Source: a virus
Lineage: Duplodnaviria > Heunggongvirae > Uroviricota > Caudoviricetes
Reading direction: 5' to 3' (one strand)
Virus record (IMG/VR): IMGVR_UViG_3300031994_002305
Location: 101,073 to 165,072 of that record
DNA: 64,000 nucleotides
Positions within the stretch are counted from its first letter, which is position 1. Each line of letters opens with the position of its first letter. The translations under genes and the position numbers were made by a program. This document shows, one piece after another, positions 2,266 through 34,507 of the stretch. The notes under the pieces were generated by a model. That model ran no database searches. It was not told where the DNA came from and saw only the letters and a program-made list of their open reading frames with translations.

Positions 2266-2674
2266 GGGCTCATTTTTGGTATTTGATTATTAATTTGAGT
2301 ATTAAAATCATGCCGTCTTGGTTATGACGTTAAAGAATCAAAACAATAAATGCTAACGATGAATTAGTAGACGATGCTTGGCTTAACAGCTGGGAATATC
2401 GTATGGCTGCTTAATCCCTCAGGGATACCATTTTACATAGTTAGGTTATAAATAAGCAAAGCCGGCGCAGTGGGAACCTACGGGTCGGGCAACAGAAGTC
2501 CCACATAAGATAGCGGTGGATATCTGGCTATTCAATTCAGATGTGTCTCCTGGTTTTCTAATTTTATGGAAACGTAAGAAATTAGATATTGAAGATAGAA
2601 ACTTACAAAAGCATGTAACAAATTTTAGTATGACGGTTGGTAAGACGACGGTTCGAATCCGTCTGGGTCCACTA
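2266..2674 (+). ncRNA. ssrA: tmRNA
   Basis: 5' GGGCTCA pairs with 3' TGGGTCC including G3.U70; discriminator A at 2671; T-arm GACGG-TTCGAAT-CCGTC; tag frame 2352-2414 encoding ANDELVDDAWLNSWEYRMAA* after an AATAAAT resume context. Confidence 0.93.
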
Positions 2675-5905: not shown

Positions 5906-6082
5906 TATGTGGGAACAATTTTATGAATTTTTAAATTTTCTTGATAGAATGATAAATAAATATCCATTTGATTTACACCATACAATTGAAATGGATTTAG
6001 ATTTATATAAATTCTGTAGAGAAATTGGATTTATGCCAGAAAATGGTATATTTAAATTTAAAAAAGTTACATTTGTTTTAGG

Positions 6083-16620: not shown

Positions 16621-16625
16621 TAAAT

Positions 16626-16653
16626 AAGGGATGGGATTAATCCCATCCCTTTT
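16626..16653 (+). terminator. terminator after dnaK
   Basis: perfect palindrome AAGGGATGGGAT-TA-ATCCCATCCCTT plus T. Confidence 0.75.
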
Positions 16654-16683
16654 GAATATAAAAAAGGAATATTTTTAAATAAA

Positions 16684-17121
16684 ATGAACTTAACACAATT
16701 AAAAGAAAATCCAAATATTAAGTCAGATCGTTTTGCATATGCAGCAATATCATTTATATTTAAAGCATATGCGGATAATATACGTTCAAAAGAATATTGG
16801 CCATGGAACGAAATATTAAATTGGAATGAATTTTTAGGTATTCCTGATAATCAAATTTTAGATGCTAATGATTATTTATCTATAGCACGTGACTTATTAA
16901 TGACAGCATCATCAAGATATTCGAATGAAAATGATACTAATAATGTAGATGAATTAAAAGATAAATGGGAACATGCTTCAAAAAATGAATATAGACGTAA
17001 ACTTAATCAGATTAAATTAAGTATGAATTCATCAAAAAATACATCTACAAATGTTAATACAACTACAATAAAATTCAATAATGATGCTGACGAAATTACA
17101 AATGAAGATAATATAGCATAA
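16684..17121 (+). CDS. hypothetical protein between dnaK and dnaJ
   Basis: 145 aa; no GrpE motifs recognised. Confidence 0.7.
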
Positions 17122-17123
17122 TA

Positions 17124-18179
17124 ATGAAAAAGGATTTATACGAAATATTAGGATTACAAAAAGGTGCATCTGATAGTGAAATAAAAAAGGCATTTAGAAA
17201 TCTTAGTTTAAAGTATCATCCTGATAGACAAGGTGGAAAAACAGAGGCTGAGAAGAAAGAAGCAGAAGAAAAGTTTAAAGAAATTTCAGCAGCCTGGACA
17301 ATATTATCAGACCCTGATAAAAAACGTCAATATGATACTTTTGGAACTGTAGATGAAAATGCTTTTACAGGTGCTGAATTTGATTTCTCAGATATATTTG
17401 GAAATATGGGAGATATATTTGGGAATATATTTGGTAATCGTCAACGTCGTCCATATAGAGACCCAGGTCGTCAAAAGGGTGCTTCTGTAAGAATGCAAGT
17501 TGGAGTAACTATTGATGAAATTCTAAACGGTAAGATTAATAGAGATATTGAATTTGATATAGATGTACGATGTGACAGTTGTCATGGTGAAGGTGGAACT
17601 GGAAAGAAAAGCTGTCCATACTGTCATGGAACTGGTATGATAACTGAAACACAATCATCACCATTTGGATTTATTCAGAACGGTCACCCATGTCCACATT
17701 GTAAAGGAACTGGTGAAACTTTCGATAATGTATGTAAAAAATGTAATGGAACTGGTTTTATTAAAAAGAAACAAACAGTTCATATTTATGCAACAAATTT
17801 CCAAAATGGACAACAATTAATGTTTAATGGAAAAGGATATCAATCAAAATATTCTAATGCACCTGATGGAGATTTAATTGTTGAATTGATATTCCAATAT
17901 GATCAAAGTAAATTTGCAATTCAAGGAAATACAATTTATGAAAAAATAGAAGTTCCATATTATGATTGTATTTTGGGAACGACTATTAATCATACATACG
18001 CAAATAATACTAAAGGGGATATTCAAATTCCAGAATATTCAAATGATGGCAAACATGTAAGATCTAATAAAAGATTTAATAATATGAATTATGAATTTAT
18101 TATTTCTGTTAAGATGCCTACATACATTAGAGAATCTGAAAAGAAATTATTGCAACAAATAAAAAAGGAGAATGATTAA
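17124..18179 (+). CDS. dnaJ: Hsp40 co-chaperone, class A
   Basis: J domain with HPD, G/F region, four CxxCxGxG repeats. Confidence 0.96.
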
Positions 18180-19228: not shown

Positions 19229-19251
19229 AGGGAGAATCTTATTCTCCCTTT
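19227..19251. terminator. bidirectional terminator between convergent genes
   Basis: AAAGGGAGAAT-ctt-ATTCTCCCTTT. Confidence 0.8.
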
Positions 19252-19742
19252 GTTATTATTGTATCTTTATTATCTTTAAATTTATTTTTAACTTTTTGTA
19301 CACCTAAATACATATCATCAATAACTTTTTCATGCATATCTTTTTTACGACGTTCTTTACATAATTCTTTATTTGTATCTAAAATAACTATTTTTACGTT
19401 AGCTCCAGCTTTACGTAACTTATCGTAAAGATTTTGAACATAACCTAATTTAATATTTGTATTATCAATAACAAAATCTTTTCTATCATGTATTAATTTA
19501 TCAATTCTATCAAAATTAATCTGACGAACTTCTTTTTCTTGTTCTTTATTGCCTATTCGTTTTTGATTAATATTTTTCATAATACCTAATTCAACACGAA
19601 TAGAATCTTGATTAACTATATTAATATCTTTTTTTAAATTATTTTTTATCCAAGTTGATTTACCAGATCCAGGCACACCAACCATTATCCAAACATTAAA
19701 TGGATTAAGTTTTTCTAATATAAATGATAATATATGTTTCAT
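19239..19742 (-). CDS. P-loop kinase (AAA_33/polynucleotide kinase-like) with CTS-like leader
   Basis: MVGVPGSGKST, DSIR, VIDNTN, R-x-x-R lid; starts MKHILSFILE. Confidence 0.82.
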   Translation of the reverse strand: MKHILSFILEKLNPFNVWIMVGVPGSGKSTWIKNNLKKDINIVNQDSIRVELGIMKNINQKRIGNKEQEKEVRQINFDRIDKLIHDRKDFVIDNTNIKLGYVQNLYDKLRKAGANVKIVILDTNKELCKERRKKDMHEKVIDDMYLGVQKVKNKFKDNKDTIITKGE

Positions 19743-20245
19743 TTTAAATCTTGTAAAAAATCTTTAAGTTCTTTAAGATGTTCTTGCTCATCTGATAAAA
19801 TTTCTTTAAGTTTTGAATTAGATATTGGATCTATATCTTCTGTCATTTTAACTAGTTCTTCATAAGTCTCTATTGCACCTTCTTCATTCTTAATATTGTC
19901 TTCTAATGTTTTCTTAATATCAATATTACCTTTATTCCATGTTGGCGCAATATATTTATGTTTTGCTGTTTCCCATGAATTAGGAGACATTGTTATATCT
20001 TCAATTGTACCATCAAGCTGAGCAATACGTTTCATAAGCCAATATCCATGGTCTTCTAATTCATCTTTGGCAGTATCTTCATAGAATTTTTCAATATCTT
20101 TACGATCTGTTCCAGCTAACCATTCTTTAACAATTACATATCCATACCATGCATTAAGTTCTTCTTTTAATGCATTTTTCATGGCATCAATAATTTGTTG
20201 GTTATTATTTGAAGCTTCAATAATTAATTCATTAATAGATTTCAT
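19739..20245 (-). CDS. ferritin/bacterioferritin-like protein with CTS-like leader
   Basis: EELNAWYGY, DELEDH...KRIAQLDG, NEEGAIETY, DEQEH di-iron pattern; starts MKSINELIIE. Confidence 0.85.
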   Translation of the reverse strand: MKSINELIIEASNNNQQIIDAMKNALKEELNAWYGYVIVKEWLAGTDRKDIEKFYEDTAKDELEDHGYWLMKRIAQLDGTIEDITMSPNSWETAKHKYIAPTWNKGNIDIKKTLEDNIKNEEGAIETYEELVKMTEDIDPISNSKLKEILSDEQEHLKELKDFLQDLK

Positions 20246-20257
20246 ATTTAAATAATA

Positions 20258-20294
20258 TTTGAATTTTTTTGAAATAATAACTATATATTATTTG
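20258..20294 (+). promoter_or_regulatory. repeated early-type promoter
   Basis: TTTGAA-18-TATATA. Confidence 0.6.
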
Positions 20295-20311
20295 TTAAAA
20301 ATAAAATATAT

Positions 20312-20671
20312 ATGAATTGGCTAAAAAGAAATTATTGGTGGTTAACACTTGTTTTTATTGGATCTTTAATTCCTATTTGGATAATTGCACAAATTATTCA
20401 TTATAATTCAGAACCAAGACATAAGATTTATGTTGAATGGGTTGTGTATGATTCCGGTACAACCAGAACATGTCATGGAACTTATGAAATTGCTGGTGAA
20501 CAATATGGAATAAGAGATGAATGGCATAGTACAGGTAAACATGGTGGAGCTTATAGAGCCGTATCAATTATTGATAAAGATAATTGGGGTTCATATATTG
20601 AAAAACAATCTGTATGTATTTATACTGGTTTACATGATGTACAAGTTACTAAAATTGAAATAGTAGAATGA
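20312..20671 (+). CDS. membrane-anchored hypothetical protein
   Basis: N-terminal TM segment. Confidence 0.7.
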   Translation: MNWLKRNYWWLTLVFIGSLIPIWIIAQIIHYNSEPRHKIYVEWVVYDSGTTRTCHGTYEIAGEQYGIRDEWHSTGKHGGAYRAVSIIDKDNWGSYIEKQSVCIYTGLHDVQVTKIEIVE

Positions 20672-20864
20672 AAACTAAAATTAAGATCACAGAAATTAAT
20701 GAAAATATCATAGGTTGGCATGGAGATATGCTTAATAGATATTTTAATGAAACACTTATGTTACGACATGCTAGAAATGTTGGAGATGAAGAAACTGTAA
20801 ATAATTATGTTTTAGGACAGTTAAATAAGTGTAAGGAATTTGGTGGAATTAATTTTAAGAAGAT

Positions 20865-21278
20865 ATGAGAAAAGTTTTTATTAAAGATTTAGCAGAAGCA
20901 CGAGCAAAATCATTGTTTACAAAAGATTTTTTTCTTACCGTAACTGATTCGTGGTATCTTGATGAACTTTTTAGATTTGAAAATAACACCAAAAAAACAT
21001 TAGGTAAGAATCCTCGTAGAACTGAAAAGGATTATTACATGGAATTAATGAGTAATCTTTTTAATTCATACGAAGATAAATTCTATAGTGGTCCTCTTGC
21101 TCAAAATGCTTATGGAGAATGTATTAATTGTTTTGATAAATTATTACGAATAATTGAACAAAGCAATAAGAAATTCAGTCAATTTGATATTGATGAAGAT
21201 ACTATAAAAAAAATTAAAGATCTAGGCAATATATTTGTTTATAAACATAATGAATTTTGTGAAGATGCTAATAAGTAG
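20865..21278 (+). CDS. hypothetical protein
   Basis: 137 aa ORF. Confidence 0.7.
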   Translation: MRKVFIKDLAEARAKSLFTKDFFLTVTDSWYLDELFRFENNTKKTLGKNPRRTEKDYYMELMSNLFNSYEDKFYSGPLAQNAYGECINCFDKLLRIIEQSNKKFSQFDIDEDTIKKIKDLGNIFVYKHNEFCEDANK

Positions 21279-21516
21279 AAAACCATTTTGTAATAATTGT
21301 AAGAACAGAGGCACAGCTTGGGGTCCATCAGATTATAATTTATATCCATGCTCATGCGGCGCGGAAATACATAAGCTTCATCCTAATAAAATTATCGTAA
21401 AAGAAAGTGAGCCTGGAATGTATTTTGTTGGGGAACGACAAAGATGCCCTGACAAAAGATTTTTTGTTCCAATTTATACTAAAGAACAACAGTTACAGTA
21501 TAATCATCACAAATAA

Positions 21517-21552
21517 TTTGAATATTATTTAAAAAATACTATATTATAATTG
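21517..21552 (+). promoter_or_regulatory. repeated early-type promoter
   Basis: TTTGAA-17-TATATT. Confidence 0.7.
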
Positions 21553-21567
21553 TAATTATTAAAACTT

Positions 21568-22116
21568 ATGGAAAAAGTACTTTATATTTATGGCTTCGGT
21601 TCAAATCCAAAAGATTCTTCTACAATGAAAGTTTGCAAAGAAATAATGGAGGAATTGGGTTATGAACTTGTTTCTTATGAATATGACCAATATGAACCAA
21701 ATGAAGGTCTTAATGATTTGGAAGATTTCATTAGTGAAAATAATATTAAGCATGTAATTGGACATTCTCTTGGTGGTTTTCTTACATTGTGTTTGAATTC
21801 AAATGTTAAGAAGTTGGTTATTAATCCATGTATGAAACCGCAATTTGAACTTCCTAAACTTGGTAAAGTTTCTCCAGGAATGCTTTATGATTATGAAGCT
21901 TTGGAAGAGTGGTTGAAGAGTGGAGATGATACTCCTTGGGTAAGTCAAACTGATGAAGTAATGGGATTGTTTGGTAATGATGATGAGTTATTTAGTTATT
22001 ATGAATCATTTAAGAAACGATACCCGCGAAGCTATAAATTTAATTCAACTCATCGCCCAACAGTTGAAAGTTTTACAGAAGATATCAAAACAAAAATAAA
22101 GGAGTTCTTTTGTTAG
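21568..22116 (+). CDS. YqiA/YcfP-like alpha/beta esterase
   Basis: YIYGFGS, IGHSLGGF nucleophile elbow, INP, DDE...H triad pattern. Confidence 0.85.
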   Translation: MEKVLYIYGFGSNPKDSSTMKVCKEIMEELGYELVSYEYDQYEPNEGLNDLEDFISENNIKHVIGHSLGGFLTLCLNSNVKKLVINPCMKPQFELPKLGKVSPGMLYDYEALEEWLKSGDDTPWVSQTDEVMGLFGNDDELFSYYESFKKRYPRSYKFNSTHRPTVESFTEDIKTKIKEFFC

Positions 22117-22124
22117 AACTCCTT
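22099..22124. terminator. hairpin between convergent genes
   Basis: AAGGAGTTCT...AGAACTCCTT. Confidence 0.7.
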
Positions 22125-22164
22125 AGTTTTTAACTCATATCCCAAATTAGACGTTTAATATCTT

Positions 22165-22785
22165 TTATGCTTTATATAATAAATTTTCTTTAAATATTTC
22201 TTTTCTATTTACATCCAATATTCTTGTAATTTGAATCGGTGCATCTTCTTCTAATGTTAATTCATATTCATCTGGATCAATTATATTTGCTGCTATAGTT
22301 TCTTCCCAATTAACATCTTTTGGATCAACTAATGCACATATTGTAATATTGTTTCTTGAACTACTTACTGCTCCATGAGAATCTCCCATACCTTCCATGA
22401 ATGTCCAATAGATACCTATATTTCCTTTATATTTAGAAAATGAATCATTTAAAGAAATAACACGTTCAATTTTAATTAAGCCTCTTTCTAATTCTAATGT
22501 TAATTGTTCATCAACAATATCTTTTATATATTTTATAAAATTTTCTTCATCATCTTCTACCGAATCAATATCGTGTTCTTCACAATAATCTTCAGCATAT
22601 ACAGTATTATTGATATTTAAATAAAATTTAGGATTATTAAAGGGATTACATTCATTAAAATAATCATAATAAGATTTTGAATTATTCTTAAGTTCACCAG
22701 GCTTTGAATTTTCTTTAAGAAACTCTATAAATTTTTCAATATGTTCATTTAAAGATTCTATGATATATCGACTTAGCATTTTCAT
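22165..22785 (-). CDS. CTS-leader protein, possible ADP-ribosyltransferase fold
   Basis: starts MKMLSRYIIE; ERVI / GIYWT / DEYEL spacing resembles R-S-ExE ARTs (inference). Confidence 0.45.
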   Translation of the reverse strand: MKMLSRYIIESLNEHIEKFIEFLKENSKPGELKNNSKSYYDYFNECNPFNNPKFYLNINNTVYAEDYCEEHDIDSVEDDEENFIKYIKDIVDEQLTLELERGLIKIERVISLNDSFSKYKGNIGIYWTFMEGMGDSHGAVSSSRNNITICALVDPKDVNWEETIAANIIDPDEYELTLEEDAPIQITRILDVNRKEIFKENLLYKA

Positions 22786-22786
22786 C

Positions 22787-23416
22787 TTATTGTTGTTCTA
22801 ATAACTTTGAATCTGTTTTATCATCAGCATCATATTTACGAGCTAGTTCTTTAAGTTTTTGACGTACTTCTTCCGGTACATCTACTTTACCTTTTGGATT
22901 ACCCATCATAAGTTTAGTATGTGGGTGACCACCAATTTTTCTTGTATAGTAATATCCATCAGGCTTTATTTCAATGAATTTTTTATCTTTCATTATTTCT
23001 TGTGCAATCTCAGCTTTAACTGGCATAGCACCTTGATTAAACATTGTTGAAACAGCTTTACCAGAAAATTCTCCCCATGCTTGTCTTTCTGGAAGTAAAT
23101 TATCTTCAATCATAATTTTCTTAAGAGATTGAACTCCTAATTCAGTTCCATCTGTACCCGCATAACATGCTTTACGACCCCCTCTTTTATTGTTATATAC
23201 GATACAAGCAACTATCTTTCCTTCTTTACGAACTAATTTCCATAATGTTGTTTCATCTATTAATTGGTCAACAGAATCCATACCTGCCATACCACCACAA
23301 TATTCGTATGATTTATTTAAAATCTTCCAAACATCATTAGCGTATTTTTTCATATCTTCTGGTCTATGACAATTAACAAAATGCTCAGTTATTATATATT
23401 CTTTTAAATTTTTCAT
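22787..23416 (-). CDS. CTS-leader hypothetical protein (possible GNAT-like fold)
   Basis: starts MKNLKEYIITE; VWKILNKSY..CGG and GTDG motifs. Confidence 0.6.
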   Translation of the reverse strand: MKNLKEYIITEHFVNCHRPEDMKKYANDVWKILNKSYEYCGGMAGMDSVDQLIDETTLWKLVRKEGKIVACIVYNNKRGGRKACYAGTDGTELGVQSLKKIMIEDNLLPERQAWGEFSGKAVSTMFNQGAMPVKAEIAQEIMKDKKFIEIKPDGYYYTRKIGGHPHTKLMMGNPKGKVDVPEEVRQKLKELARKYDADDKTDSKLLEQQ

Positions 23417-23422
23417 ATATAA

Positions 23423-23452
23423 TTTGAATTTTTTAAATAATATTCTATTTTG
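23423..23452 (+). promoter_or_regulatory. repeated early-type promoter
   Basis: TTTGAA-17-TATTTT. Confidence 0.6.
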
Positions 23453-23891
23453 TATATATAATAATAAAAATTATGACAAAATATCCATATTATATTGCAG
23501 CATATTTTAATGCTGGAATTCTTAGAAAAATATTTGATAATCATAAGTTTGCGTGTTATAATTGTTGTATGGATGCTATACGCAAACTTTTGGAAAATAA
23601 ATGGGTGAAGAAAATGTTTGGATCTCAGATAGTTATTTTGGAATATGCTGGCAAACATCAAATAAAAATTATTAATGTTATTGAAAACGGTCAAGGCCAC
23701 ATTATTGCAGAACCAATAAAATACGATTATGAGAAGCAATGTTAAACTTGAATGCATTATTGTTCCAAATAAAGGATCATTTGTAGTTGGTAATACTTAT
23801 ATAGGATTTGATCATTGGTATAATGCAGACGCTGGTGAAACAGAAATGGTGATTACTGATGATAATAATAATTTACAGAAATTTAGAGATT

Positions 23892-24605
23892 ATGAGTGGT
23901 ATAAATATTTCAGAGAAACCAATTAAGAATATACTTTGTTATTCTCATTATGATTTTGATAAGATCATGGAGAAAAATGGATGGATAGAATCACCACCTA
24001 AAGGTGTATCATGCATCTCTATTTGTTCTCCAAATGAGGGAGATTTATCTGAACATTGGTTTAAAGATTCAATTTTTGTGGGAGAAGAAGGTGCAGCAAT
24101 CTTAAAACGTAATTTTAGAGTATTTAATCTCGATATTGATGATGCTAGTCCATTTTGGTTTGATAATCATGAGAGTGAATGTTACGATAAATCATTAGAT
24201 TTATATAAAGATGGAAAAAAGAAACAATCAAATGCTTACTTTAATAACCTCTACATATCTGGTAAGAATAGAGAATTCGTGGATATCATTCACGTTCTCG
24301 ATTATGAAGAGGCATATGACCTTGTTGATTGGATTGATTGGCGAATCAAACATGACGACACTATTTACGTTCACTGTGCCGTTGGAGCAAGCAGAAGTCA
24401 AGGAGTTGTTAGATATATTGTCGATACCTATGGAGGAGAATATGATATTAGATTAAATCCAAATAATCCTAATAATACATATAATCCCCATGTCGTACTA
24501 ATGCTTAAGAGAGCTTATATAACATTTATGCAAGATATGGGTGATTCATATTTACAAACTGAACCAATGAAATTTAACGAAAATATTAAATTAAATTTAC
24601 TATGA
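23892..24605 (+). CDS. protein-tyrosine/dual-specificity phosphatase
   Basis: VHCAVGASRS = CX5R P-loop; likely start MSGINISEK at 23892. Confidence 0.8.
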   Translation: MSGINISEKPIKNILCYSHYDFDKIMEKNGWIESPPKGVSCISICSPNEGDLSEHWFKDSIFVGEEGAAILKRNFRVFNLDIDDASPFWFDNHESECYDKSLDLYKDGKKKQSNAYFNNLYISGKNREFVDIIHVLDYEEAYDLVDWIDWRIKHDDTIYVHCAVGASRSQGVVRYIVDTYGGEYDIRLNPNNPNNTYNPHVVLMLKRAYITFMQDMGDSYLQTEPMKFNENIKLNLL

Positions 24606-24698
24606 GTGAACAAGAAAAAGAAAGATTGCACCAAATTCAACATGTAGAATTGGACGCGGATTATTTAAGAGAAATATATAGACAAGCAGACAAATAAT

Positions 24699-25007
24699 AT
24701 GAAAAGGTTATTTATATTTTTATTTTGCTTAATAATAATGAGTTGTGGGTGTGGTCATAAAGAAGGTGAACATATTCCAAATGATACGATGCTTTGCGTA
24801 GTAGATTATAAGGCAAGAACTTGGAGTTATAATGTTGTGTTTCATATGCCAGAATGGAAATATAAAGTAACATTTAGAAATATACAAACTGGTAATACAA
24901 GTATAATTCATAAAAAATTATTTTATGATATGTTTAATGAAGGTGATACAATTTATGAAATCGTACAACATTGCCCTTATTATAGAGTAGAACTAAAAAA
25001 TAGATAA
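24699..25007 (+). CDS. putative lipoprotein
   Basis: hydrophobic leader followed by SCGCG. Confidence 0.55.
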   Translation: MKRLFIFLFCLIIMSCGCGHKEGEHIPNDTMLCVVDYKARTWSYNVVFHMPEWKYKVTFRNIQTGNTSIIHKKLFYDMFNEGDTIYEIVQHCPYYRVELKNR

Positions 25008-25008
25008 T

Positions 25009-25206
25009 ATGAGTACAATACAAGAAATTGCAGAAAAATTGGTTAATCTTTCTGTTAAAGAAGTTAATGAACTTTCAATGATTCTGAAGAATGATTCTAT
25101 TGAACCAGCCAGATATAATATGTATGATGTTAAACCACAAAAAATAATGACTCCTAAGCAATATGGACAACAACAAATTCAAAGAAAAATTAGAAGACAT
25201 CCGTGA
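25009..25206 (+). CDS. ribosomal protein bL12 (L7/L12) N-terminal domain homolog lacking the C-terminal domain
   Basis: IAEKLVNLSVKEVNELSMILK...IEPA matches the recalled Bacteroidetes bL12 NTD; followed by a basic tail. Confidence 0.75.
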   Translation: MSTIQEIAEKLVNLSVKEVNELSMILKNDSIEPARYNMYDVKPQKIMTPKQYGQQQIQRKIRRHP

Positions 25207-25447
25207 AAAATATGGAATGCAATATGCATTATTTTGGATGGGATATTATTTATGGAAAGCTGACCAAGAAAAACTTGAAGAGGAAGCAAAAAAATCATTA
25301 GAAGAAATCCAAAAATCATTTGAGGAACATAAGAAAAAAGAAGAAGAACTAAGATTTTATTTTGAGCATCCTGAATTAATGCCAAAAGTTACTTCACCAA
25401 AAGAATATGGAATGTCTTTAAAGAAAAATAAACGATATAAATATTGA
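25163..25447 (+). CDS. hypothetical protein with SPKEYG basic tail
   Basis: 94 aa ORF. Confidence 0.7.
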   Translation: MDNNKFKEKLEDIREKYGMQYALFWMGYYLWKADQEKLEEEAKKSLEEIQKSFEEHKKKEEELRFYFEHPELMPKVTSPKEYGMSLKKNKRYKY

Positions 25448-25497
25448 ATTAATATTATTTAGTTTCTATATATTATACAATAATCAAGCAAACAAAT

Positions 25498-25656
25498 ATG
25501 AATAAAACAGATTTGAAAACAGATGAACTTAAGATTGCCTATAAGGTAATTACTAAGATTATGAAAACAAATAATCTAATGAGAGATAATTCTTTTAATA
25601 GAGTTCGTAATTGGATATCTAATTCACTTTGTGATTCATTGACAGATGACGAATAA
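25498..25656 (+). CDS. small hypothetical protein (52 aa, not in track)
   Basis: directly follows promoter ATTGAA-18-TATATA and AATCAAGCAAA leader. Confidence 0.6.
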   Translation: MNKTDLKTDELKIAYKVITKIMKTNNLMRDNSFNRVRNWISNSLCDSLTDDE

Positions 25657-25814
25657 ACTTAAAACATATTTACAATGGAGATGCTTAAAGAATTGGCCAG
25701 GAAAATATATTAAGACTAATTTATATATTGATCTTTGGATCTCTAATGTAACACATACTCAATGTGAGTATTTTGAAAAGGAAATGAATAATTTAATTAA
25801 TAGAGGAATTTATA

Positions 25815-26162
25815 ATGGGTAGGCAACGAAAATTCATTATTGTAAAGGATTGGTCTGGTAAGAATATTGAAATTCGTATTGGATATCCTATATATCATCG
25901 TGATTTGTTAAATAAGTCTGATGAAAAAAATAATATTGACTGCTACGGTGGTGGTTATTGGTCTGTAGATTTTGAAAATAAAACAATTAAACTTTATGGT
26001 TCATCTGATGATTTTGGAAAACCAAATAAAGATGATATTCAAAAGGCAATCAAAAAATTGGATCCACATGATTGGTGGCAAATAGGACATGCAATTGAAT
26101 CTTCATATGACCTCGATAATGATGAGGAATATGATAGTTTTAAGTTTATTGTAGATTATTAG
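25815..26162 (+). CDS. hypothetical protein
   Basis: 115 aa; HRDLL...YGGGYW...LYGSSDDFG. Confidence 0.75.
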   Translation: MGRQRKFIIVKDWSGKNIEIRIGYPIYHRDLLNKSDEKNNIDCYGGGYWSVDFENKTIKLYGSSDDFGKPNKDDIQKAIKKLDPHDWWQIGHAIESSYDLDNDEEYDSFKFIVDY

Positions 26163-26234
26163 TAAATTAAATTATTTATAAATCTAAGTCATTCTAGATA
26201 GCTCTAATGACGATTAATTAAATACAATTGAATT

Positions 26235-26612
26235 ATGATTAAAAACTTTAATTTAACGGGAGAAATTCAAAATATTTTGTGCGATATGGTAATTGATATT
26301 CATAAACTACTTGATGAGGCACAGAATACAAAAGTTAACATAACAATTGGAAATGCAGCCAATATTTCTAAATTTAATGATCGTATTGTAAGCATTTTTA
26401 ATTATGTTAATTCAATGTATAAGGAGTTTATTGAGACTGGTAACTATGAGGCAACAATTTCTCGCATGATGTATTTGTATTCTTGTATTGATAAGAATTA
26501 TAATTATAAAGAAGGTACATATCCTTATAAATCAATTAATTCAATTAAAGATGTTATTGATAGTGCTTGGGATGATTTAAGTAATTTAATTAAGAACTAT
26601 TACAATTTTTAA
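26235..26612 (+). CDS. hypothetical protein
   Basis: 125 aa ORF. Confidence 0.75.
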   Translation: MIKNFNLTGEIQNILCDMVIDIHKLLDEAQNTKVNITIGNAANISKFNDRIVSIFNYVNSMYKEFIETGNYEATISRMMYLYSCIDKNYNYKEGTYPYKSINSIKDVIDSAWDDLSNLIKNYYNF

Positions 26613-26615
26613 TGT

Positions 26616-27101
26616 ATGAAGAAAAATAAGATTATTCGTAAGCTTTATAATGCATTGATTGATAAGGGTTTTGATGATAATAAGTATAACGAAGTTATGG
26701 GTTATACTCGCGATAAGTTTGAAAATCCTATTTATGTAAAAAAACTTATTGTTGAAGGTGTTGAAGGAATTGATTCTATTGCAGTAACTGCAACAGAAAA
26801 AGATTTTGAAGATGCATGTGATGCAAATATTCGTGTTGCTTATAATGATCATAATATTGGTAAACGTGTATTTGTTTATGCTAATGAACTAAATGGCCAG
26901 GTTTTGGATAATATTTTAAATGCTATTATTAAGAAGTATTATCCAGTTTCTAAGGTATGTCATTGGAAACGTCTATGGGATGTTGTTGAAAATTCATATT
27001 ATAATAATGGAAAAACATTTATTGGTAATGTTGAAGTACCAGTTAATTCATTGGCATTTATTTTAAATGATTATAAGGAATATCAGAATTTAGAAATTTA
27101 A
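26616..27101 (+). CDS. hypothetical protein
   Basis: 161 aa ORF. Confidence 0.75.
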   Translation: MKKNKIIRKLYNALIDKGFDDNKYNEVMGYTRDKFENPIYVKKLIVEGVEGIDSIAVTATEKDFEDACDANIRVAYNDHNIGKRVFVYANELNGQVLDNILNAIIKKYYPVSKVCHWKRLWDVVENSYYNNGKTFIGNVEVPVNSLAFILNDYKEYQNLEI

Positions 27102-28337
27102 TTATGAGTTGGAGCATAAGTGAATTAGATAAGGATAAGACAGAGCAATCAATTGCGAATGAATCAGCTCGTCTTGATAGTTGTAGAGAAGCATTGGATA
27201 AGCTCAAGAAGGAATATGAACAAAAGCGATATCATTTTATTCATGTAGTTCTTGCACAAATGGAAGATAAAATAACAACATTGGAAACTTCTATTGCATC
27301 AGGAGAAAAATTTCTTGAAGAATGCAAGAATCATTTGAAAACTTTTGAAAATTAAATTTTTAAGTACTATTATTAATTATCAAACAAATAATAAATGAAA
27401 TACTTAGGTTTTGATGGCGGTTGGTTAATTGAAAATTTTGCTATTTTACCTAGCATTAGTTATAGTTGGATGAGAACTAATAAAGCTGGTCTTTGTTGGT
27501 CTGTACAATTTGCATGGCTATGGTGGTATTTTGATTTTGGAACTATTCGTAAGAAACTTAAAGAACAAGGATATTAATATGATTGAAATTAAAATAGCAG
27601 AAGTATATTATTCTGAAGATCCTAAGCAAGCAGCGATTTTACGTACTGACTGTGAAAAGTTTATTGAAGGATTTAAGAAATTGTGTAATTTAACAAATAT
27701 GCATAATGTTGATGTATATAATTTACATTCCGTAAATATTCCTACAAAATTGAAATTTAATGATGGGTCATCAATAGGTATTGGTAAATTATTTGAAGAG
27801 ATAGGATTTGAATAATGAATTATGATAATAAAAATGCTTTCCCATGTGAATTTGATTGGGTATTCATACTTAAAAAAATGAAACAATTTGACGTAGATTT
27901 TGCTAGTTTATATGGCGTAAAGATTTTTGAAAAGGATTTTTCTGGAGCTATTAAACGTTCATTAAAACATGGGCCTATTCATTTAAACAAAGAATATATT
28001 AATGCAATATTACGAAAATATAACAAAAAATGAAATTCTATACGCATATAATTATTTGCTGTATATGAATAAATATCCTGGAACGGCGTGCTTGCATTGG
28101 TATTCCATGACAACCAGTACATTTAAATCACGTCAGAAATTTCCTGAGATATATGATTTTGGATTTTTATATCCTGATATGTCAATATGGTTTACACCAG
28201 AAAAAGGAAAAGAAGTTCTTCATATTAGAGAAGATTTTGATAATACATTAATGAAAGATATAATTAAAGATATGGATTCATTTATTGAATCTATGAACGA
28301 ATTAATAAACATAAACAAATAAATAAGGAGATAAACT

Positions 28338-29786
28338 ATGAGTAAATTAAATTCCACAAAAAAGTCTTCAACACTTAAGGCTAATCAAGTAACTGTTGGT
28401 GAAATTGCAGGTTGTGTTACAAATACAGCTGCAGCTCAAACAAATATACAGTATCTTCGTCGTCTTGTACTTGCCAATCTTCTTTGGGAGGACATTGCGT
28501 ATGCAGACGGTATAAGTATCGCTGGAGAGATTAAGCGTCTTATTCCACTTTGTGATCCAAAGGATGTAGCTTTACTTACAATTGAAGCGCGTACAATGCA
28601 AAAGCTTCGTCATACACCTCTTTTCCTTGCGGTTGAGATGTGTAAGCATGATGCTACTCGTGCATATGTTCGTGAAGTACTTCCAAAGATTATAACTCGT
28701 GCAGATATGCTTACTGATTTCATGGCTCTTTATTGGGCTGATGGAAAGTGTCCTATCTGTAATGCAGCAAAGAAGGGTCTTGCAGATGCGTTCCATAACT
28801 TTAAGGAATATCATTTTGCTAAATACGACCGTGATGCTGAGATTAAGCTTCGTGACGTAATGTTCATGGTTCGCCCAAAGCCACAGAATCAATTGGAGGA
28901 AGCTCTTTACAAAAAGATTGCTGACCGTACTCTTGAAACACCAGAGACATGGGAGGTACTTCTTTCACTTGCTCACACACCAAGTGAGAAGTCAGCTGTT
29001 TGGACAAAACTTATTACAGAAGGTAAGCTTGGTGGTATGGCTATGCTTATGAATATTCGTAATATGCAGCAAGCTGGTGTTCCTCGTCCAATTATTGAGC
29101 AAGGTCTTAATAATATTAATGGAACTATGCTTCTTCCACTTCAGTTCCTTAAGGCAAGACAAGAATCATCCGGTTTTGACCGTGAGATTGAAGATGCTAT
29201 GCTTAAGTCATATGCTAACCTTCCTAAGCTTCCAGGTAAGACTCTATTTATCGTAGACGTATCAGGTTCTATGGGATGTGAAGTTTCATCTAAATCAAAA
29301 TTCTCACGTATTGATGTTGCAGCTGCTATGGCCATGCTTGCAGCTAATCAATGTGAAGATTTTGAATTAGTATGTACTGCTGGCGATGACTGGAAATTAG
29401 TTGAAGCACAAGAACGTATTAAGTATCCTTCTAAAGGATTTAAGATGATTGATGATATTCATTCAGCTGCACATAGATGTGGTGGGGGTGGTATATTCAC
29501 ATATCAATGTCTTGAAAAACTTCGTAAGGAGCTTGGTGATAAGATTCATACTTATGATCGCGTAATTGTGTTCTCAGATTCTGCTGATATTGATGTAGCA
29601 CATGGTAAGAATGTTAAGCCACGTCCATTTGGTAAATATAATTACATTTGTGACGTATCTTCTCATAAGCATGGTATCGCATATAAGGGTGTATGGACTG
29701 CAGAGATCACTGGTTGGTCAGAGCACTTCTTAACTTATATTGCAGCCTTTGAAGGTATTGAAAATGCCTTTGGTGATTTGAATTAG
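28338..29786 (+). CDS. TROVE domain (Ro60/Rsr) RNA-binding protein with C-terminal vWA domain
   Basis: LRRLVLANLLWED, LRHTPL, RADMLTDF, FAKYDR...KLRDV, TWE, NIRNM, VDVSGSM, VFSD, ITGWSE. Confidence 0.92.
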   Translation: MSKLNSTKKSSTLKANQVTVGEIAGCVTNTAAAQTNIQYLRRLVLANLLWEDIAYADGISIAGEIKRLIPLCDPKDVALLTIEARTMQKLRHTPLFLAVEMCKHDATRAYVREVLPKIITRADMLTDFMALYWADGKCPICNAAKKGLADAFHNFKEYHFAKYDRDAEIKLRDVMFMVRPKPQNQLEEALYKKIADRTLETPETWEVLLSLAHTPSEKSAVWTKLITEGKLGGMAMLMNIRNMQQAGVPRPIIEQGLNNINGTMLLPLQFLKARQESSGFDREIEDAMLKSYANLPKLPGKTLFIVDVSGSMGCEVSSKSKFSRIDVAAAMAMLAANQCEDFELVCTAGDDWKLVEAQERIKYPSKGFKMIDDIHSAAHRCGGGGIFTYQCLEKLRKELGDKIHTYDRVIVFSDSADIDVAHGKNVKPRPFGKYNYICDVSSHKHGIAYKGVWTAEITGWSEHFLTYIAAFEGIENAFGDLN

Positions 29787-29825
29787 TATAGACTAATAAT
29801 CTATATTAATTTAATCTTATTGAAA

Positions 29826-29896
29826 GCCGACATACTAGAAATAGTCACTGTAACAGTTAGGCATACTTATTCTTCACGAATAGGTATGCCTTTTTT
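29826..29896 (+). ncRNA. candidate Y-like small RNA plus terminator downstream of TROVE
   Basis: GCCGAC...TAGGC closing two hairpins (ACTA-GAAA-TAGT, ACTG-TAA-CAGT); 14-bp terminator stem 29859-29891 plus U-tract. Confidence 0.4.
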
Positions 29897-30119
29897 CTTT
29901 TTAAATATATTAAGTTTTAATTATGACAGAAGATGAAATTAAAAGACATGAAGAATGGTACAATTATTATTTTGGTTATTCACATCTAACACCAGAAAGA
30001 AGATGTAGACGTGGTGCATTAACCTTAGAATCAAAGTATTAATAAAAATATTTAATTTATAATTATGGGAGATTGGGAATATGATTGGGAAGATTAATAC
30101 ATATATTTAAAATTGTATT

Positions 30120-30248
30120 ATGACATTAGATGAAGCAATTAAACATTGTAGAGAGAAATCTCAAGGTTGTTCAGAATGTGCTAATGAACATTATCAATTG
30201 ATGGAATGGTTGATTGAATTGAAAAAATATAGGGAAGCTAACGAATAG
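30120..30248 (+). CDS. small phage protein MTLDEAIKHC...CANEHYQL
   Basis: 42 aa hand translation; recurrent phage motif. Confidence 0.6.
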   Translation: MTLDEAIKHCREKSQGCSECANEHYQLMEWLIELKKYREANE

Positions 30249-30262
30249 CTTCCCTATTTTTA
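30229..30262. terminator. bidirectional terminator
   Basis: ATAGGGAAGCTA-acgaa-TAGCTTCCCTAT plus T-run, at a convergent junction. Confidence 0.8.
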
Positions 30263-30766
30263 TTGTTGATTTTTTAATGATTCATTAATTTCAAGATTAG
30301 CTTCAGATTCAGCTTTCTGTTTTCTTTTCATTAGTTCTTCTAATTCTTTTTCTTTCTTTTCGATTTCTTTTAAAAGACCTTCAAGTTTTTGTTTTCCCTT
30401 AGAATTAATAAACTCTTGTATAACTTCTTTTGAAGTTCCAATATAAATTGATCCTATTTCCTCACCAAATCCATAAAATTCTACTTGATGTTTTTCATCA
30501 GTATAATCAATAGATCCAAAATGATATTCTGTATAATGATCAACTTTATATTCATTTTCAGAAAGATAAATATAAATATAGTACGAATCAAATTTTGAAC
30601 CCTTTTCCATTTTTACCTTCTTAATATCAGTTACTGTTGCTTTTACAATTTTTGATTCCCCATCTTTTAAAAGATATACTGTTGTACCTTTACGAGGACA
30701 ATGAATATTTTTGGCATTAGCTTCTAATATTAAATTTTCATTAATTTTTTCGTTTAAGTTTTTCAT
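30260..30766 (-). CDS. CTS-leader hypothetical protein (start MKNLNEKINE)
   Basis: leader motif; C-terminal coiled coil. Confidence 0.75.
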   Translation of the reverse strand: MKNLNEKINENLILEANAKNIHCPRKGTTVYLLKDGESKIVKATVTDIKKVKMEKGSKFDSYYIYIYLSENEYKVDHYTEYHFGSIDYTDEKHQVEFYGFGEEIGSIYIGTSKEVIQEFINSKGKQKLEGLLKEIEKKEKELEELMKRKQKAESEANLEINESLKNQQ

Positions 30767-30770
30767 ATTA

Positions 30771-31109
30771 TTATTTAACATGTGTTTTTATTTCTTGCCA
30801 AATTCGTTTATCAGATTTTGAAAACTCATCATCAGGACAACTTAATACATAATCAGCTGTTTTATTGATAATATCATGATATTCTTTAATAAATGACCAT
30901 TGAACTCTTGAATTATCATCTTCCAATTGTTCTAAAACAGCATTTAATTGTAAAAATTCTTCTTGTTCTTCTTTAGTTAATTTTCCAAAGAATTCATCGT
31001 ATAATTTATATTCTTTCCACATTTGATATGCAATCATAATTGTAAGCATATCTAATTTTCTTAGAGTACCTGATTTACCTTCGCTTATTATATCTTTAAT
31101 ATTTTTCAT
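30771..31109 (-). CDS. CTS-leader hypothetical protein
   Basis: starts MKNIKDIISE. Confidence 0.75.
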   Translation of the reverse strand: MKNIKDIISEGKSGTLRKLDMLTIMIAYQMWKEYKLYDEFFGKLTKEEQEEFLQLNAVLEQLEDDNSRVQWSFIKEYHDIINKTADYVLSCPDDEFSKSDKRIWQEIKTHVK

Positions 31110-31486
31110 TTCATTTGATTAATATAATTAGTTATTTTGGATTTTTTCTTAATATCTTCATATGGAATCAACTTTTTATCAATAATCTTTTTAGCAATAT
31201 TCATGATTGCATATTTTTCATAAGCTTCCTGTGAAGAATAATTTTCTTTTAATTCCCAAAAATAATCATTGATTGCTCTTCTTGTTTTATTTGATTGAAT
31301 TTTATATACCCATGCATTATCATATTTACTAATACAAAGTATTAAATCTTTTATCTCATCATATTCAAAACATATACCTGAAATATGTTGGGCCGTTTCC
31401 CATGGAAGTTTAAAACCATCAACACCTAAAACTAGCCAATATTCTTTATTTTGTGATTCATTTATATATTCTTTTAATTGTTTCAT
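31106..31486 (-). CDS. CTS-leader hypothetical protein
   Basis: starts MKQLKEYINE. Confidence 0.75.
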   Translation of the reverse strand: MKQLKEYINESQNKEYWLVLGVDGFKLPWETAQHISGICFEYDEIKDLILCISKYDNAWVYKIQSNKTRRAINDYFWELKENYSSQEAYEKYAIMNIAKKIIDKKLIPYEDIKKKSKITNYINQMK

Positions 31487-31489
31487 AAT

Positions 31490-31792
31490 TTATCTCCATT
31501 TATGTTTTAATATTAATAATTGTTGTACTTTAACAGTTTTAGGTACATTATAATTTTCTTGATCAAAATCTAATGTTTTAATAGTTCCAACAAGTTTTTG
31601 GCTATCCCATTCTTCCAATATTCCTCTATAAAGACGTGGAGTTTTCGTATTATTATCCATCATCTTGTCTTTAATGCCATCTTCATAATAAAACATAACA
31701 TCTTCAGGAATTTTCATATTTTCTCCAAGAACATCAAAATGATTTTCTGAAGAATCATTAGTTTCATTTATGATATCTTTAATATCTTTCAT
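31490..31792 (-). CDS. CTS-leader hypothetical protein
   Basis: starts MKDIKDIINE. Confidence 0.75.
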   Translation of the reverse strand: MKDIKDIINETNDSSENHFDVLGENMKIPEDVMFYYEDGIKDKMMDNNTKTPRLYRGILEEWDSQKLVGTIKTLDFDQENYNVPKTVKVQQLLILKHKWR

Positions 31793-31812
31793 ATTTAATA
31801 TTTCCTATATTT

Positions 31813-32238
31813 TTAATATCCGATACAACAACTCATATCATATGTATCAAATGGATCATCAACAGTTCCTGCTGCATGACAATTAAGTGTTCCAACCATA
31901 AATGGATCTTCTGCTCCTTTTACGTAGATTTCAACTTTGTATTGTTTCCATTGTGACATACCATCTTTTGATTTACGATATCCACCATCATCAGGAGCAA
32001 TAGTAACTTCATATTCGTGAGGTGCATTTTTTATATTCTTAAATGCATCTTCAATATCTTTCTTAACCAAGCCAACACCTTCCCAAGCATCATCTCGATA
32101 AAACTTGCCGGTTGTACCTGTCTTTTCAAGTTGTTTATAAATTGCATTTTGAACCTTTTTCTTTTCAGGTGCTTTAATTGATTTATCTAATACACCATCT
32201 GAATATGATTCATTAAGTATATCTTTTAAGTTTTTCAT
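31813..32238 (-). CDS. CTS-leader hypothetical protein
   Basis: starts MKNLKDILNE. Confidence 0.78.
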   Translation of the reverse strand: MKNLKDILNESYSDGVLDKSIKAPEKKKVQNAIYKQLEKTGTTGKFYRDDAWEGVGLVKKDIEDAFKNIKNAPHEYEVTIAPDDGGYRKSKDGMSQWKQYKVEIYVKGAEDPFMVGTLNCHAAGTVDDPFDTYDMSCCIGY

Positions 32239-32246
32239 ATTAATTA

Positions 32247-32837
32247 TTATAATTTTCCAAGTGCAAATCCTTTAATAAACCATTCAGATGTTTTATCTTC
32301 ACCTTCCCATTTTACATCATATCCTTTATATGAATTAACAGGTGCATTTAATTTAAGATTACCTGATTTAACATTATCTTCAACATCTTTATGAGATATA
32401 ACCTTAAATGATTTAGCAGTTTTATTGATTAAAAGATAATAACCATCTTTATTGAAATTAACTAATGATCCTAATGATATAGCTCCAAAATATTTATCAG
32501 ATATCTTTACATCAATAAAGTAAACAGGTTTATCATTTTTCATAATAATTAAGTCACCATTTTGGGCATCAAATTCACTCTTTTCCTTTTGACTTAATTT
32601 ATTAAAATCACCATCTTTTACTTTTGAATAATATTCAGCAGTTCCAATAATTGTAAAATCACCTTCATTAAAATCTTTTGTAATTAAAAGTTCGTTTTCT
32701 TTTTGTTTATCAAATTTATCTGGATCTTGTTCTGACCATGATTGTAATTTACTATAATCAACAGAACCCATCATTCTTTTAATCATTGGCATTAATTCAC
32801 TTAATGATTCAAATAAATATGTTTTTAATGTTTTCAT
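32247..32837 (-). CDS. CTS-leader protein, possible PD-(D/E)xK nuclease
   Basis: starts MKTLKTYLFE; GDLII...FIDVK motif. Confidence 0.5.
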   Translation of the reverse strand: MKTLKTYLFESLSELMPMIKRMMGSVDYSKLQSWSEQDPDKFDKQKENELLITKDFNEGDFTIIGTAEYYSKVKDGDFNKLSQKEKSEFDAQNGDLIIMKNDKPVYFIDVKISDKYFGAISLGSLVNFNKDGYYLLINKTAKSFKVISHKDVEDNVKSGNLKLNAPVNSYKGYDVKWEGEDKTSEWFIKGFALGKL

Positions 32838-32879
32838 AATTTATATGTATGTATTTTAAATCTTTTATAATTACTTATT

Positions 32880-33128
32880 TTATTTTTCTCTAAGTTTTAA
32901 TTCAATTTTATCTCCAGGTTTTGACATATCAGCAATTGTTTCATAAAATGATTTAATAATATGAAAACGATTTTCTTCTTTATTTAAATCATATTTCATT
33001 GATTTCATACCTTTTTCTAAGCAATCTTGAAGTTCATCTAATTCATCAACATTTAATAATATTGTTGAATCTGATGAATATACTTTTGGTGTTCTTGATT
33101 CTTTTATTTTATTAATTAAGTTTTTCAT
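32880..33128 (-). CDS. CTS-leader hypothetical protein (start MKNLINKIKE at 33128)
   Basis: leader motif; the track's upstream extension overlaps the previous gene. Confidence 0.7.
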   Translation of the reverse strand: MKNLINKIKESRTPKVYSSDSTILLNVDELDELQDCLEKGMKSMKYDLNKEENRFHIIKSFYETIADMSKPGDKIELKLREK

Positions 33129-33145
33129 AATATGTAATTGTGTAT

Positions 33146-33901
33146 TTAATCTCCTTGATATTTGCCTTGTCCATATCCCCTTGACCAAGCAAGTTTTTCG
33201 TGATCTGTTAAGCTGTTCCACCATTTATCCCAAGCTTTTGCAGCTTTTTGTTTTTCTTCTTCATCTTTTCTTCGTTTTTCAATTTCAGCTTTTTCTTTAT
33301 TATCAGCTTCTTTAGACCATTCTTCAAGATGTTTAATATCTTTTAATTCTTTAATTTTTTCATCACGTTCTTTATTAAATTGTTCGTTATTCAATTTAAA
33401 CTCTAATACATTATTGCCTGCATCAATAACTGTTACTGAAATTTTTCCTTTCATAAATGGCTTAATCATTTTAAACCAATCATTCCAATCTTTATTATAT
33501 TTATCATAATTATATTCTACAAATTTATGAGAATACCATGCACCAGCCCAAGTGTATTCTTGAATTTCTGGTATTTCAGTCCAATCTTTCGTATTCTCTT
33601 TGTTTGGAAATTTCTTATATGTTATTTTATCTGCAGGTAATGGAAGTCTAATCATTTGATTATAATTATTAACAAACTTAACTATTTTTCCTTCATCCTT
33701 TTCAGTTTGTTCTTCTTTACCAATACTGAAAAATATTTTGTAAATATTTGATTTTGTTATTTTATAATCTTTATTTTTTGGGCCTTCATTATAAATATCA
33801 AATGTATAGGGTAATTTAATTATGTCTTTACCTTCACCTATGATTTTAAAACATTCATCTTTTAATGAAGTCTCATTAATATAAGTATTTAAAGTTTTCA
33901 T
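33146..33901 (-). CDS. CTS-leader hypothetical protein
   Basis: starts MKTLNTYINE; C-terminal coiled coil ending GYGQGKYQGD. Confidence 0.78.
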   Translation of the reverse strand: MKTLNTYINETSLKDECFKIIGEGKDIIKLPYTFDIYNEGPKNKDYKITKSNIYKIFFSIGKEEQTEKDEGKIVKFVNNYNQMIRLPLPADKITYKKFPNKENTKDWTEIPEIQEYTWAGAWYSHKFVEYNYDKYNKDWNDWFKMIKPFMKGKISVTVIDAGNNVLEFKLNNEQFNKERDEKIKELKDIKHLEEWSKEADNKEKAEIEKRRKDEEEKQKAAKAWDKWWNSLTDHEKLAWSRGYGQGKYQGD

Positions 33902-33907
33902 ATATAA

Positions 33908-34507
33908 TTAATTTAATTTCTTTCCCATGAATCTTTGTTCAATTTGACCATTTTTTAATATTTTAATACGTTCTTGAATTGATATATGATTTATTCTTTC
34001 TCCTCTAAATAATGTTTTAATTATAATATCTACTTTTGGGCCATTTTCTTCAAGTAACCATATTGCCCATAATGTTTTTTCAGTAGGTCTTGCACCATCT
34101 GGAATTAAGCGTTGATTCTCTTCTTTTAAATAACATTGACATTCAATAGTCCATGCATTAACTTTTCTTTTATCATATCTATTAAAAAATGGTTTTAACT
34201 TACCATCATAATTTAATTCCATTATGTCATTCCATGCATATTTAAACATATCAATAATTTCTTGACGATCAATTTTTTCGCCATCACCACCCTTTTCAAC
34301 TGGACGTTCTAATCTATCTTCAGCGTGTGTTCCCATTTTAAGTTCATCACCATCATTTGAAGTATAAACTGTGCGATTTCCTTCAAGAATCATTTGACGA
34401 AACTCATTAGATAAAAATTCTAATGAACTTTCATCTAATTCAAATATAATGTTTCCTAATTTATTTTCCAAAGAATTACGATTTAAATATTCTAAAATTG
34501 AATGCAT
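33908..34507 (-). CDS. hypothetical protein, first gene of the - strand cluster
   Basis: 199 aa; THAEDRLER motif. Confidence 0.75.
   Translation of the reverse strand: MHSILEYLNRNSLENKLGNIIFELDESSLEFLSNEFRQMILEGNRTVYTSNDGDELKMGTHAEDRLERPVEKGGDGEKIDRQEIIDMFKYAWNDIMELNYDGKLKPFFNRYDKRKVNAWTIECQCYLKEENQRLIPDGARPTEKTLWAIWLLEENGPKVDIIIKTLFRGERINHISIQERIKILKNGQIEQRFMGKKLN

Follow-up and report, generated by a model that had tools for sequence, protein, structure and literature searches.

Phage genes that appear to join the N-terminal domain of ribosomal protein bL12 to a conserved basic helix

Results

Judged from its sequence, the small phage gene P0001 is a chimera, in which the domain that anchors bL12 in the ribosomal stalk is followed by a phage helix, and not a bL12 N-terminal domain alone. 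This conclusion rests on the finding that the tail of the protein is a second conserved module, one that also ends the overlapping downstream gene. Ribosomal proteins of phages have for the most part been interpreted either as spare copies or as factor-binding heads. The P0001 family is the reverse case, in which the anchor is kept, the head dropped and a conserved phage helix added, and it occurs in jumbo phages and in smaller unrelated phages of gut and rumen Bacteroidota. The family is real and conserved, and apparently undescribed; no description of proteins with both the N-terminal domain and the tail was found in the literature, with most subscription journals lying outside the search. 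In the window (the whole 64,000-nucleotide stretch of DNA that was analysed), the gene and its parts are as follows.

25009..25206, + strand: chimeric 65-aa gene P0001, with a bL12 N-terminal domain, a variable linker and an SPKxYG-basic helix
25009..25110, + strand: bL12 N-terminal (dimerisation and uL10-binding) domain, residues 1-34, from PF16320, 62% identity and the AlphaFold2 model
25111..25149, + strand: variable linker, residues 35-47, from the family spacing and lower pLDDT
25150..25203, + strand: conserved module, TPKQYG plus basic helix, residues 48-65, net charge +5, predicted helix 49-63

The N-terminal part of P0001 resembles bL12

P0001 runs for 65 codons from ATG to TGA and starts 1 base past the stop of a 102-aa gene. 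Its translation is exactly that quoted in the first-pass annotation, which had read the product as a bL12 N-terminal domain only, with a short basic tail, and as a possible stalk decoy. The proposed origin of the domain is borne out. The Pfam family PF16320 (Ribosomal_L12_N) matched residues 3-27 with an E-value of 5.6e-4, and the same family was found in all 31 of the close relatives (best E-value 1.9e-7). The profile match that had been anticipated was therefore there, but its score of 20 bits is below the gathering score of 25 bits. Threshold annotation misses P0001 for this reason, though the bL12 match is real; a more host-like member of the family, L223, passes the cut-off with 29.6 bits.

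Direct comparison gave the same result. Over residues 1-29, BLASTP against a Prevotella-type bL12 (the gene directly downstream of uL10 in a human-gut contig) found 18/29 identities (62%) and 26/29 positives, and a family profile searched against 1.84 billion proteins retrieved genuine Bacteroidota bL12 N-termini at an E-value of about 1e-8. P0001 retains the core hydrophobics of bL12 (I4, I7, L11, V12, L14, V16, V19, L22, I25 and L26). The Tyr30-Gly31 of the host has been lost, P0001 having D-S-I-E-P as compared to D-E-Y-G-I-E-P.

The bL12-like part of P0001 ends where the Ala-rich hinge of the host protein begins. There is no Ala-rich hinge in P0001, in which homology ends at or before E-P-A, and the Ala-rich run is absent from all tail-bearing family members examined. 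We also confirmed that the C-terminal domain is missing: PF00542 matched neither P0001 nor anything else in the 376-kb record, in a search whose control was positive in 10 of 14 genomes. The whole-length bL12 equivalog TIGR00855 did not match P0001, and two relatives gave weak partial matches. Compared with Bacteroidota bL12 of the Prevotella type (L7/L12; rplL; PF16320 plus PF00542; TIGR00855), P0001 is alike in residues 1-29 and in its predicted two-helix hairpin. It differs in having no hinge, no C-terminal domain and no acidity (P0001 is basic, with a pI of 9.6, whereas bL12 is acidic, with a pI of 4.6), in lying outside any rplJL operon, and in ending with a phage-specific helix. By hinge, C-terminal domain, acidity and operon context alike, P0001 is not a bL12. 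A frameshifted or split full-length rplL was rejected because no C-terminal domain was found in the record, and read-through of a recoded TAG was rejected because P0001 ends in TGA and its relatives are of equal length.

In the AlphaFold2 model of P0001, residues 4-12 and 16-28 are helical and the linker is of low confidence. A further helix, at residues 49-63, is predicted with confidence; it starts at the T-P motif and is separate from the two bL12 helices. The model is too small for fold searches to be informative. All VIA-align matches had Z below 3.5, and those to the bL12 N-terminal domain chain 1dd3_C (Z 2.2, rmsd 3.0, 32 aligned) and to 1rqt (Z 2.2, rmsd 3.8, 34 aligned) are at noise level at this size; Foldseek against the PDB gave no match, the model being too small to be informative there. 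Searches of PDB sequences with P0001 and with A1 found no bL12, and A6 gave only weak matches to T. maritima bL12. There was no meaningful family for P0001 in PHROGs or NCBIfam. Complex prediction for Prevotella-type uL10 (alignment of 43) with two copies of residues 1-36 (alignment of 41) gave scores of 0.07 and 0.13, with controls not folded, and speaks neither for nor against binding. A sigma-70 promoter scan, the model of which does not cover Bacteroidota promoters, remained at shuffle level.

A conserved basic module ends the protein

The tail that had been taken for a short basic appendage is a conserved [ST]P[KR]xYG-basic module, and the reading of P0001 as an N-terminal domain only was revised for that reason. 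Over 133 sequences, the motif is S/T in 97%, P in 98%, K/R in 100%, Y in 98% and G in 99%. These values are partly by construction, as the motif helped to define the set, but searches driven by the N-terminal domain independently show the same pattern. The tail after the motif has a median net charge of +6 in the 133 sequences, and across the family 9-31 aa (mostly 19-26) separate residue 26 from the motif. Codons of the motif differ freely at third positions, indicating that selection acts on the protein; conservation at the DNA level was rejected on the same grounds.

The SPKxYG motif was found exactly twice in the 376-kb record, in P0001 and in the overlapping 94-aa gene, compared to a chance expectation of 0.015 copies in six frames. 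A search with the tail only recovered 77 new fusions to the N-terminal domain and 7 relatives of the downstream gene; of the 4 remaining sequences, 2 have a damaged N-terminal domain. The tail had no match among known families, PDB chains or the sampled host proteins. Searched against 121 genomes of the family that contains Prevotella, the tail profile gave a single spurious match, and no host origin for the tail was found in this sample. The N-terminal domain and the tail occurred together in none of the best-listed 150 matches from 401 genomes of that family. A DNA-pattern scan of IMG/VR for the tail returned mostly frames without an upstream start. The resemblance to SPKK and AT-hook-type basic nucleic-acid-binding tails, which have S/T-P-K and then many Lys/Arg at the protein end, is a resemblance only, and the invariant Tyr-Gly and the predicted helix are foreign to those motifs.

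The SPKxYG helix at the C-terminus is conserved like the N-terminal domain, persists where that domain has diverged, and ends a second gene that has no such domain; we conclude that it probably forms a functional module. Identical linkers bear different tails after the Tyr-Gly, and identical tails sit on both gene families, which suggests recombination at the motif. The downstream gene was possibly inserted there. The likeness between K-E-Y-G in the tail and D-E-Y-G-I in the host protein was taken as coincidence, since the tail is also present in members whose E-Y-G-I-E-P is intact.

An overlapping gene ends in the same module

25163..25447, + strand: 94-aa gene with a long charged, probably helical body, then HPE and an SPKEYG-basic tail
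25394..25444, + strand: second copy of the SPKEYG-basic tail, in the 94-aa gene

The sequence TATGGA, the Tyr-Gly codons of P0001, supplies the first ATG of the 94-aa gene, so that the last 13 codons of P0001 are read in two frames. The same start arrangement was found in the window and in the related loci L132 and L001. The 94-aa gene, which has a dN/dS of 0.24 against L132, is present in the window, L132, L001 and L004, and absent from L012, L017, L134 and L135. Tyr-Gly is kept in family members whose second frame is closed.

The family is widespread and its bL12 part is conserved

The truncation first read from a single sequence is shared by the whole family. We identified 133 distinct relatives of 52-74 aa, all with the same layout of bL12 N-domain, variable linker, [ST]P[KR]xYG and basic tail; full-length or decaying relatives did not occur. 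Family loci span 25-57% GC and lie in unrelated Bacteroidota phages. Some are on jumbo-phage contigs (25-31% GC), which reach 465-474 kb; others are on unrelated phage contigs that have a GC content of 38-57% and a different gene neighbourhood. In the high-GC members the host E-Y-G-I-E-P is retained and the bL12 part ends exactly at the start of the Ala-rich hinge, identifying this as the point at which the captured gene was broken. The first-pass annotation had used a Bacteroides-like sequence for comparison, but among host types the Prevotella-like one is nearest: the family consensus agrees best with the N-terminus of Prevotella-type bL12 (18/23 positions), and on this basis we infer a Prevotella-like Bacteroidota host. 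The 23 aligned residues are too few for counting capture events.

In the low-GC phages, residues 4-22 have a pooled pS of 0.56, a pN of 0.08 and a dN/dS of about 0.08; when all members are compared, synonymous sites have reached saturation. The pooled values are descriptive and carry no formal test, because pairs share ancestry. By these counts, the bL12 part is under strong purifying selection. Residues 8-22 remain nearly host-like in the 133 sequences (E9 96%, N13 87%, K17 87%, E18 98%, N20 95%, E21 98%). As polar positions are among them, this stretch is more conserved than a generic helical hairpin should require in order to fold. In the jumbo-phage members the end of helix 2 has drifted, and an aromatic residue near position 30 was found in 41/133; the equivalent residue of E. 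coli bL12, Phe30, is part of the dimer core. In three loci (L226, L227 and L229, each at 6001), the bL12-like part is strongly diverged and the tail, S-S-P-K-Q-Y-G, is intact; PF16320 had no match in the two of these that were searched.

These data bear on whether P0001 could be a decaying fragment of a captured rplL, or a chance likeness to bL12. Such an origin would fit the sub-threshold Pfam score and the closest pair of sequences, in which residues 30-65 have 1 synonymous and 6 non-synonymous changes and no purifying signal. However, the tail of that pair is dual-coded with the downstream gene, which distorts its dN/dS. The 133 intact relatives, the low dN/dS of the N-terminal domain (0.08) and the conserved synteny argue against decay, and remnants of a hinge or C-terminal domain were found in no member of the phage family. 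We regard this explanation as scarcely credible.

Most members escape annotation because they score below the Pfam cut-off. One member record bore the JGI label 'ribosomal protein L7/L12', and the others checked had no name or were called hypothetical. A contig-wide profile scan was dominated by matches to host rplL. The GenBank entry L007 (MT836236.1, 'Bacteriophage sp.') contains a nusG-rplKAJL-rpoB run, which is Prevotella-type chromosomal DNA.

The gene lies in a jumbo phage that appears to use the host stalk

23859..24605, + strand: dual-specificity-phosphatase-like gene (weak DSPc match), upstream and syntenic
25815..26162, + strand: Janus/Ocnus-family gene, downstream and syntenic

The window comes from a virus record of 376,291 bases with an estimated completeness of 98%, 26.9% GC, 65 tRNA calls, a tmRNA and IF1. 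Long open reading frames read normally under code 11, and 5 of 118 end in TAG. There was no uL10, bS21, EF-Tu/EF-G/IF2-type GTPase or bL12 C-terminal domain found in the 376-kb record. From this absence, the phage appears to use the stalk and factors of its host.

The phosphatase-like gene also lies just upstream in the jumbo-phage relatives L001, L004, L012, L017, L132 and L135. In the jumbo-phage contigs the family gene usually lies between this gene and the Ocnus gene, with TROVE nearby. In the window, the TROVE/vWA (Ro60-like) gene is at 28338-29786; in relatives it is near the family gene, and is followed by IF1 in L001 and L004. The major capsid protein is T4-like, with 35-38% identity to its counterparts in uncultured and Tenacibaculum phages. 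A Lak megaphage (540-660 kb, TAG recoded, near-identical capsid) was rejected, given the 376-kb size, code 11 and a capsid protein 31% identical to that of Lak-A/B, and no Lak record matched P0001. The carrier fits the Jug phages (360-402 kb, 27-30% GC, code 11, IF1; PMC12880540) in size, GC, code and IF1, by description only.

Other features of the genome were noted. The phage tmRNA (window 2266-2672) encodes an unusual tag peptide ending in Y-R-M-A-A, and genes for DnaK and DnaJ are at window 14674-18179. ARAGORN called a tRNA with anticodon CUA (G000:C1:347128-347199) at the end of the large tRNA cluster. Many minus-strand genes in window 19239-34507 open with leaders that resemble one another (M-K-x-I/L-x-x-Y/F-I-x-E).

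Possible action at the ribosomal stalk

The N-terminal domain of bL12 (residues 1-37) is a hairpin of two helices, through which the protein dimerises and attaches to helix alpha-8 of uL10, and the C-terminal domain binds translational GTPases (PMC3299993). Ribosomes one bL12 dimer short have slower IF2 and EF-G steps and support slower growth (PMC3299993), and bL12 exchanges on ribosomes as both monomers and dimers (PMC5310722). Our leading proposal, to which we give about an even chance, is that the chimera uses the host stalk-anchoring domain as a docking tag with which it enters the uL10-bL12 stalk. The sequence ground for dimerisation and entry into the stalk is the host-like state of residues 8-22.

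The sequences show that some 30-35 codons from the 5' end of a Prevotella-type rplL were taken up, truncated where the hinge begins and fused to a phage SPKxYG-basic helix. The fusion, now in unrelated Bacteroidota phages, has been maintained by purifying selection. By homology and the established structure of the stalk, the two-helix hairpin would pair with host bL12 or with itself. The dimer would then bind helix alpha-8 of host uL10, entering by the normal exchange of bL12 monomers and dimers. Each phage subunit would replace one acidic factor-recruiting C-terminal domain with a tethered basic helix, and close to the factor-binding site this helix might be offered to a partner, either RNA or protein. 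The expected outcome would be partial re-tuning of IF2/EF-G-dependent steps and not shut-off; partial occupancy or tethering is the likelier result given the apparent dependence of the phage on host GTPases.

That dependence, and the tail, weigh against a plain decoy, the main idea of the first-pass annotation taken here with an incidental tail, in which the N-terminal domain fills stalk sites or soaks up bL12 and throttles translation. The anatomy fits a dominant-negative decoy, with the anchor present and the C-terminal domain absent, and fewer C-terminal domains do slow IF2 and EF-G steps (PMC3299993). However, an incidental tail would not be 98-99% conserved at three positions across unrelated phages. 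A phage record in which no translational GTPase was found implies a need for active host ribosomes, and a full block of the stalk would stall the phage's own translation. We consider a plain decoy improbable.

Several observations argue against docking: the drifted end of helix 2 in jumbo-phage members and the lost aromatic near position 30 in P0001, the Pfam score of P0001 below the gathering score, the strong divergence of the N-terminal domain beside an intact tail in L226, L227 and L229, the presence of the tail, without any N-terminal domain, on the neighbouring 94-aa gene, and the fusion of a bL12 N-terminal domain to a Tad2-like domain in L228. In an alternative reading, the bL12 hairpin would be only a borrowed dimeriser and the effector would be the dimerised SPKxYG-basic helix, binding nucleic acid or protein off the ribosome. 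Consistent with this, the tail is near-invariant at P, Y and G despite synonymous divergence, it survives where the N-terminal domain has diverged, the charged helix-like body of the 94-aa gene could be an alternative oligomeriser, Tyr30 is mostly lost, and the N-terminal domain has also been fused to a Tad2-like domain (see below). In contrast, self-dimerisation would allow polar residues to drift, yet E9, N13, K17, E18, N20 and E21 remain host-like at saturated synonymous distances, and a host-like N-terminal domain made where bL12 is abundant should mix with the host protein. We judge a role off the ribosome, the main rival to docking, to be plausible but on the unlikely side.

The target might instead be free uL10(bL12)4 or the pool of free bL12, so that the protein alters autogenous control of rplJL or stalk assembly and not mature ribosomes. 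uL10(bL12)4 autogenously regulates rplJL in E. coli and B. subtilis (PMC10931766), and a basic helix beside this mRNA-binding complex could add RNA contacts. The regulation is that described for those two species, the gene context gives no pointer to it, and a protein that enters the free complex should enter the stalk too. We think an action confined to the free components quite unlikely.

The Tad2-like fusion is in locus L228 (6001-6417, equal to L230:3001-3417; IMGVR_UViG_3300012016_000056), where a bL12 N-terminal domain (PF16320, 29.7 bits) is joined to a Tad2-like anti-Thoeris domain (PF11195, E-value 2e-22). This fusion shows that phages can reuse the bL12 N-terminal domain as a portable module, without ribosomes necessarily being involved. 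The domain was absent from all 19 of the next-closest Tad2-like loci read. A broader, speculative and rather doubtful extension of docking at the stalk is that in Bacteroidota phages the bL12 N-domain is a general 'ribosome-docking tag', which plugs an effector (the SPKxYG helix, and once a Tad2-like anti-defence domain) into the multi-copy stalk. The helix might then act at the factor-binding centre, for example by favouring phage mRNAs or by shielding the GTPase centre from host translation-arrest defences.

If docking to uL10 is correct, P0001 would be a natural 65-residue tool for altering how many stalk heads are active; control of the translation rate in this way has already been proposed for bacteria. 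The family would then offer a simple test of whether phages build specialised ribosomes.

Comparison with known phage ribosomal proteins

Huge phages encode rpL7/L12 (Al-Shayeb et al. 2020, PMC7162821). The bL12-domain proteins of phages described by Mizuno et al. 2019 (PMC6375957) are, like P0001, phage-borne pieces of a stalk protein under purifying selection. Their cultivated-phage cases, however, are Ribosomal_L12 (the C-terminal-domain family) with residues for uL11 and EF-G/EF-Tu, whereas P0001 has the opposite half and a new tail. Also unlike P0001, the 735-kb phage LR756501 and locus L016 have full-length bL12; the 123-aa genes, at L313:701-1072 (LR756501) and L016:6001-6372, are of the Bacteroidota type.

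The nearest design precedent is the bL9 chimera of Mycobacterium phage 32HC (PMC6375957), in which, as in P0001, the ribosome-anchoring N-terminal part was kept and the C-terminal domain replaced by unrelated phage sequence. The 32HC chimera involves a different ribosomal protein with an RNA-binding anchor and is a single case, whereas the P0001 family has more than 100 sequences that share one conserved tail.

Two genes upstream of the family member in L226, the gene at L226:5297-5656 has a GAPDH-like N-terminus (Gp_dh_N, E-value 0.005, 17 aa) and a basic tail after F-P-K-D-Y-D. It is possibly another fusion of a host fragment to a tail.
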